Below are positions 5,298 to 5,926 of a stretch of 64,000 nt of DNA, one piece after another. Positions within the stretch are counted from its first letter, which is position 1, and each line of letters begins with the position of its first letter. The notes under the pieces were generated by a model, which saw only the letters and a program-made list of their open reading frames with translations, did no database searches and was not told the origin of the DNA. The position numbers and the translations under genes are program-made. Source of the stretch: Escherichia coli. GTDB taxonomy: Bacteria > Pseudomonadota > Gammaproteobacteria > Enterobacterales > Enterobacteriaceae. Where the stretch lies: the NCBI RefSeq assembly GCF_003018235.1, contig NZ_CP027437.1, one strand, 5' to 3'.

Positions 5298-5926
5298 TCA
5301 TATACGCCCTTTGAGATAAGTCAGGCCCGGCTGGATCCAGTCATCAGGCGCTTTCTTAAAGGGTGGCGTATTGAAATCACAAAGAAGAGCCTCCCGCACC
5401 GCAGCATCCCTGTCTGCACCACTGGCAAGTGCTTCAATCTCTGCCGCCACCTGCAGATACCCCATGCAACGGCCAATGCGTTTCATAACCCTGGTGTTTT
5501 CGTCTTTCAGGCATCCAATAGCGAGATCAATAATTTTCAGGCAATGATGATTGCGATGCCGGACAGGTTTCCCGTTCTCATAAACGACGAACTCACCTTC
5601 TTCACAGGAAACCCTGAAAGGCCGACGGGGTTCCTGGGCTTTATCCGGTGCAGACGCAATAAAATAGCGTTTATTGCCTTCCTCTCCGGCACTTTTAATC
5701 GTAATGGAGTACTTTTCTGACAATGTGGTCGGTGATAGCTTTTCCTGCAAAAAATTCGCAAAGGTCCTGCGAGCAACTTTGATGCAACCATCATAAAACG
5801 CCGCCTCCTGTTCATCGCGGCGTTTTTTTCATCTTCAGAAGTCACCAACACCGACAGTTTTTTATTCAGTTCGGCAATTTCATTTTCCAGGCGACTGAAG
5901 CACTGACTCATTTCTTCATGGTGCAT
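5298..5926 (-). pseudogene. hypothetical protein with apparent frame change at an A7 tract (about 5823-5829)
   Basis: ORF 5537..5926 is protein-like only up to the A7 run; ORF 5298..5750 frame is open upstream to 5828 and protein-like downstream. Confidence 0.4.

Follow-up and report, generated by a model that had tools for sequence, protein, structure and literature searches.

What is encoded between the pinholin and the endolysin of a lambdoid prophage when the sequence there is protein-like at both ends but not in one reading frame? The question arises from a 64,000-nucleotide stretch of Escherichia coli DNA (contig NZ_CP027437.1; here called the window), in which a coding sequence starting on the minus strand at an ATG at 5926 changes frame at a run of seven adenines. 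A preliminary description of the locus, made from the sequence letters, had left homopolymer slippage, a frameshift mutation, and a sequencing error as possible causes. The locus lies on the minus strand where the late operon of a lambdoid prophage begins, and positions 5250-5990 match E. coli O158:H23 CFIAFB20140388 (NZ_CP076709.1) with 100% identity. The genes surrounding the split gene are as follows:

6566-6748, minus strand: DUF1378 gene
6223-6528, minus strand: DUF826 gene
5930..6145, minus strand: class II holin of the phage 21 S (pinholin) type, 71 aa (Pfam PF04971, E 1.9e-33)
4722..5255, minus strand: lysozyme-type endolysin, 177 aa, with a hydrophobic N-terminal (SAR-like) segment (PF00959, E 8e-25; PHROG 7, endolysin)
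3965..4447, minus strand: Rz spanin gene, the last gene of the lysis cassette (Pfam PF03245, E 2.7e-41)

The product of 5930..6145 is named "class II holin family protein" in RefSeq, and 3 nt separate the holin stop codon from the downstream ATG of the split gene. With an S21-family holin, a lysozyme, and Rz in this order, the cassette is of the phage-21 type, in which a pinholin is paired with a SAR endolysin; the SAR-like nature of the endolysin N terminus was read from hydrophobicity in the sequence alone, and its membrane behavior is a prediction. The gap of ~275 bp between the endolysin and Rz genes holds a 65-aa ORF (4425-4622, minus strand) with a hydrophobic C-terminal half, which is unannotated in RefSeq.

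The coordinates of the split gene and the frame change at A7, as given in the preliminary description, were reproduced from the sequence, and only a length figure had to be amended. The gene is composed of the following elements:

5933..5940, minus strand: Shine-Dalgarno-like GGGGAGAG, 6 nt upstream of the ATG at 5926 and within the 3' end of the holin gene
5825..5926, minus strand: codons 1-34 of the gene in the original frame (MHHEEMSQ...SEDEK), by translation
5823-5829: homopolymer run, T7 on the plus strand and A7 on the coding (minus) strand, the site of the 1-bp deletion
5298..5828, minus strand: remainder of the gene in the -1 frame, KRRDEQEAAFYDGC...GLTYLKGRI, then a stop codon at 5298-5300 (translation, PHROG 1085, homologue alignment)
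5537..5926, minus strand: 129-aa ORF of 34 native and 95 out-of-frame residues, by translation

Translation from the ATG (5926-5924; frame A) gave MHHEEMSQCFSRLENEIAELNKKLSVLVTSEDEK and then, out of frame, NAAMNRRRRFMMVASK... The R/K-rich junk that had been noticed in this frame past A7 was confirmed and runs to a stop codon at 5537-5539; the out-of-frame product is the same as that of the 129-aa ORF called in GCA_037174145.1 (P0121). Residues 1-34 are identical in P0060 and share 85-91% identity with intact homologues. In the -1 frame, no stop interrupts the sequence between 5828 and the stop codon at 5298-5300; this frame begins with KKRRDEQEAAFYDGCIKVARR... and includes the peptide DEQEAAFYDGCIK. 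This C-terminal part had been described as a coherent stretch of 150 aa. It is coherent, but its real length is ~175 codons (residues 35-209), and the figure of 150 aa results from counting only from the first TTG, at 5750 on the minus strand. That TTG is not a real start, as it has no ribosome-binding site and lies within a conserved segment of the protein. In the -1 frame near the run, neither ATG nor GTG codons accompanied by a ribosome-binding site were found, and GGGGAGAG is the sole credible start signal for the split gene. A scan for promoters and terminators returned nothing above chance, with no promoter-like site on the strand of the gene. Homopolymers of at least 7 nt were observed 25 times in the window, against ~12 expected from base composition. 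The A7 run is unremarkable by itself; the frame change at the run is the real part of the observation. Other long runs in the window are an A9 at 13996-14004 and three C8 runs inside 250 bp (33124-33367).

In other genomes, the same slot is occupied by one uninterrupted gene. E. coli SCU-111 has a single 213-codon ORF with an A8 run (GAT GAA AAA AAA CGC), and CFSAN029787 has a single 209-codon ORF in which the run is interrupted and reads AAAACAAA (GAA AAC AAA CGC). The single-ORF homologues in this slot include WP_169062006.1 (213 aa, A8), WP_001300760.1 (209 aa, AAAACAAA), WP_001015165.1, and WP_032313254.1, and in two more complete genomes an intact ORF of 213 codons comes immediately after the holin gene. 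The protein database contains over 150 homologues; most of the top matches listed are 185-222 aa long. When one A was inserted into the run, the repaired 209-aa protein showed 92-98% identity over all 209 residues to some intact E. coli proteins of 208-209 aa, and its residues 1-209 aligned with positions 117-296 of the PHROG 1085 profile (E 2.1e-76). Because of this full-length match and the intact E. coli homologues, both of which are evidence from beyond the window itself, the two pieces were assigned to one gene, which bears out the earlier proposal of a single gene split at A7. Comparison of the repaired alleles (median dN/dS of 0.51 over 854 pairs) indicates a real coding sequence. As the homologues are single ORFs with either A8 or AAAACAAA, the ancestor was one gene, and the window is short of one base in the run; judging from the alignments, the ancestral run was A8, coding for Lys-Lys.

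The same comparison disposes of the reading in which two overlapping genes, each with its own start, meet at the run. ORF finders do list a 129-aa and a 150-aa ORF here; however, homologues arranged as two independent genes were looked for and not found, all of them being single ORFs. The 150-aa ORF begins at the TTG discussed above, and the 129-aa ORF has homologues for its first 34 residues only, other frameshifted alleles aside. We therefore discard this reading.

The closest alleles indicate how the base was lost. In three loci, from two draft genomes and one metagenome scaffold (L102-L104), the gene is identical to that of the window save for an A8 run and a change of GAG to TAG at codon 117; these are the only two differences across ~1.0-1.2 kb for L103 and L104, and within the gene for L102. 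Since L103 and L104 differ from the window by A8 and the amber codon only, their common ancestor with the window was intact and had A8. A single intact ancestor was thus inactivated twice and by different routes, once by deletion of an A and once by the amber mutation at codon 117. We consider it highly probable (about 85%) that the locus is an accessory gene of the lysis cassette, ~209 codons in length, that was inactivated by the inherited loss of one A from A8. By this loss, GAA AAA AAA CGC would have become GAA AAA AAC GCC, most likely through strand slippage in DNA replication. Ribosomes starting at the ATG at 5926 would then produce 34 native and 95 out-of-frame residues before stopping at 5537, so that the conserved C-terminal domain would not be made; rare exceptions could arise from an extra A in transcription or from a -1 slip on A_AAA_AAC. 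The gene is already flagged in public annotation, since RefSeq/PGAP lists KQ220_RS23815 (window 5321-5926) as "hypothetical protein, frameshifted." Like other E. coli prophage pseudogenes frameshifted at a homopolymer, it has a 1-base change in an A run, a conserved ORF, intact orthologues, and the PGAP flag. Nothing substantive sets it apart from them; here the same run has been hit repeatedly (A7 at least five times, A9 once).

Of the three causes considered at the outset, homologue and allele comparison favored the frameshift mutation and spoke against both a sequencing error and programmed slippage. If A7 were an error of sequencing or assembly, the true genome would have A8 and an intact gene. 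Homopolymer length is the most common indel error in long-read and 454 data, A8 is known in an otherwise identical allele, and some of the A7 cases that we found in IMG/VR might be errors, being from draft isolate genomes. However, an independent draft assembly containing the same prophage (L105; GCA_037174145.1) was gap-free and 99.97% identical over 3355 bp and also had A7. Because this assembly agrees, we take A7 to be inherited within this prophage lineage and not a read error, although a systematic miscall of the homopolymer common to both A7 assemblies is formally possible. Furthermore, just two CDS were flagged as frameshifted in 50 kb of the NZ_CP076709.1 record, both of them in the prophage, and the core genes were all intact. 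The assembly is therefore not rich in indel errors, and we regard an error at this run as quite unlikely.

Recurrent length changes at the run raise the possibility of a phase-variable contingency switch, in which reversible A7, A8, and A9 states would turn the gene on and off and the off state would sometimes be favored. A pattern scan of IMG/VR that allowed A7 to A9 between fixed flanks yielded 96 loci, 92 with A8, 4 with A7, and none with A9. The four A7 loci represent at least three diverged alleles (L016/L043, L082, and L027), and one A7 locus, once repaired, equals an A8 locus. The downstream frame was open to the normal stop codon in all three A7 loci in which the downstream part is complete. 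In addition, STEC299 has A7 within a long YdfR-fused version of the gene, and a diverged A7 allele was also seen as the miscalled proteins P0122 and P0123. An A9 allele occurs on 11 contigs; it was verified in L108 (1500-1515) and is also present in L109-L111. This allele is reported as a 178-aa protein, MKKKRRDEQ..., because an ATG within GAT GAA is in frame with the downstream part. Since four or more other diverged alleles have A7, and an A9 allele is known as well, the run is a slippage hotspot. A switch would accommodate these frame-shifting length polymorphisms among strains, with A7, A8, and A9 as natural alleles and several independent origins of A7, and the knockout of near-identical alleles in two ways is as compatible with selection for loss as with neglect. 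Nevertheless, 8 nt is a short run for a contingency locus, A8 predominates in the scan, and many intact alleles have an interrupted run (AAAACAAA coding for ENK, or ANK), and nothing suggests that the tract is being maintained. Members of the family are disrupted elsewhere too, as expected under plain decay: in L013 another A-rich stretch is frameshifted, L015 has a deletion, and L102-L104 have the amber codon. Such a pattern is that of a mutable homopolymer in a weakly constrained gene (dN/dS of 0.51). We therefore consider a switch very improbable, and the same holds for a hypermutable A7/A8/A9 switch whose off state leaks full-length protein by A insertion or a -1 slip. If a switch did operate, lysogens would vary in some lysis-related trait.

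Functional recoding of A7, in which a -1 ribosomal frameshift or the insertion of an A by RNA polymerase would set the ratio of short to full-length product, is suggested by the sequence at the run. In frame A, A_AAA_AAC (5828-5822) is formally an X_XXY_YYZ slippery heptamer in the right register, and -1 is the direction needed. It is followed by a GC-rich hairpin:

5795..5826, minus strand: predicted RNA hairpin, AAAACGCCGC, a 12-nt loop, and GCGGCGUUUU (region fold z of -1.7)

Insertion of a single A in the mRNA would likewise restore the frame, and in E. coli, transcription errors that insert a single base cluster in A/T runs and become more frequent as the run lengthens (PMC5574713). However, the hairpin begins inside the A run and heptamer, with zero spacer, its z of -1.7 is not significant, and it is not placed like a -1 stimulator; no upstream Shine-Dalgarno-like stimulator is visible in the sequence, and Rfam searches at relaxed thresholds returned chance-level matches only. 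E. coli dnaX and the IS3-family transposases (A_AAA_AAG plus stimulators) likewise have an A-rich heptamer in the zero frame and a downstream ORF in the -1 frame. In contrast to these, the heptamer at the present locus ends in C and not G, has neither a spaced structure nor a Shine-Dalgarno-like element, and is not conserved. In genes that use transcriptional slippage (A9 in Thermus dnaX, T9 in Shigella mxiE, A9 or A8 in IS elements), the run similarly joins two frames, and one additional A in the mRNA restores the frame. [quoted passage not shown] Because single-A insertions in the mRNA rise with run length, small amounts of full-length product may be made, but only incidentally. Unlike in the known systems, the two-frame layout is a rare derived state; the homologues are in frame, and the closest relative has A8. 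That the downstream frame is still open in every A7 allele with a complete downstream part fits recent mutation but would also be expected if these alleles were still expressed via slippage. Nothing points to selected frameshifting at A_AAA_AAC, and we judge recoding to be extremely improbable. As for the hairpin itself, it is GC-rich and followed by UUUU, and thus terminator-like; it lies within coding sequence, directly at the A run. Its stem codes for RR...AA and is kept in aligned homologues despite loop changes, with a G-U pair in STEC299.

The protein that was lost by the deletion was compared with known families. The slot had been likened to that of ydfR in Qin-type prophages, with a larger product. 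YdfR of the Qin prophage of K-12 (DUF1327, PF07041) does occupy the same lambdoid lysis-cassette neighborhood, and the repaired protein is homologous to the last two-thirds of the long (268-333 aa) members of the YdfR family, in which this part follows DUF1327; PHROG 1085 takes in both. The likeness does not extend to the DUF1327 domain that defines YdfR. K-12 YdfR (103 aa) is essentially DUF1327 alone, whereas the window gene lacks that domain: searches of Pfam and NCBIfam with the repaired protein returned no family above threshold, and DUF1327 was not among the hits. K-12 YdfR has been reported to bind the RNase E catalytic half, the contact mapping to the first 72 residues of YdfR (PMC13232886). 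Because the binding maps to a domain that is missing here, it is uninformative about the module in the window. In E. coli 2015C-3121, a separate small DUF1327 gene (L106, 2234-2461) follows an intact 213-aa homologue. In other strains, DUF1327 and the present module are fused in the order opposite to this arrangement, which suggests modular shuffling of both domains.

In the repaired protein, a coiled coil is predicted at the N terminus; a variable middle then leads to a conserved C-terminal domain of ~110 residues with the motifs H-R-x-x-I-I, G-R-C-M-G-(Y/L)-L-Q-x-A-A-E-I-E, D-N-P-P-F-K, and W-x-x-P-G-x-x-Y-L. The family is small: an exhaustive profile search of 1.84 billion proteins returned only 40 cluster representatives, which were nevertheless enough to define the C-terminal domain. 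A scan of ten distant relatives revealed no Pfam domain above threshold and one weak match to DUF1327. A profile search of PDB sequences with the repaired protein gave no match below E 0.04. The model of the full repaired protein (42-sequence alignment) had a pLDDT of 46.8 and was unusable; the model of the C-terminal domain (pLDDT 73.8) comprised three short strands followed by four helices, and its fold comparison returned no informative relatives. A literature search joining ydfR, holin, and prophage found no papers. Family members are present in Stx-converting phages, and in one distant relative the gene lies two genes upstream of the holin-lysozyme-Rz set and not between holin and lysozyme.

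The significance of the split itself is small, as it is a correctly spotted but routine pseudogene. It belongs to a family (PHROG 1085) of common, fast-evolving, and often-broken accessory genes beside the lysis genes of lambdoid prophages, Stx-converting ones included; since the gene is often found broken, it appears to be dispensable in the prophage state. Gene callers split it at the A8 hotspot into spurious short proteins (e.g., P0121-P0123 and P0015), and the same origin may apply to several short PHROGs whose match covers only part of the protein. Alleles annotated as intact can carry a terminal frameshift of their own. Thus, WP_001300760.1 (CFSAN029787, L002 3064-3693) has a 3'-end frameshift (CCACCC to CC-CCC), and its C terminus is NTPPLRKSLMTGSSRG in place of the conserved NTPPFKK...GLTYLKGRI. 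At window 5545-5560 (minus strand), a compensated pair of 1-bp indels distinguishes two allele groups, GGCATCGCAATCAT (PVRHRNHHC) and GGGCATCGCATCAT (PVRASHHHC); the window version is a true variant and not an error, because it is common to many intact alleles. The prophage contains one more pseudogene with a frameshift, a member of the YlcI/YnfO family, at 4965663-4965868 of NZ_CP076709.1 (~window 2029-2234). The coordinate origin of that record falls within the gene for the small subunit of the prophage terminase (4966561-4967133, ~window 764-1336), which is annotated as partial for this reason, and by coordinate mapping the window would extend beyond the end of the record.
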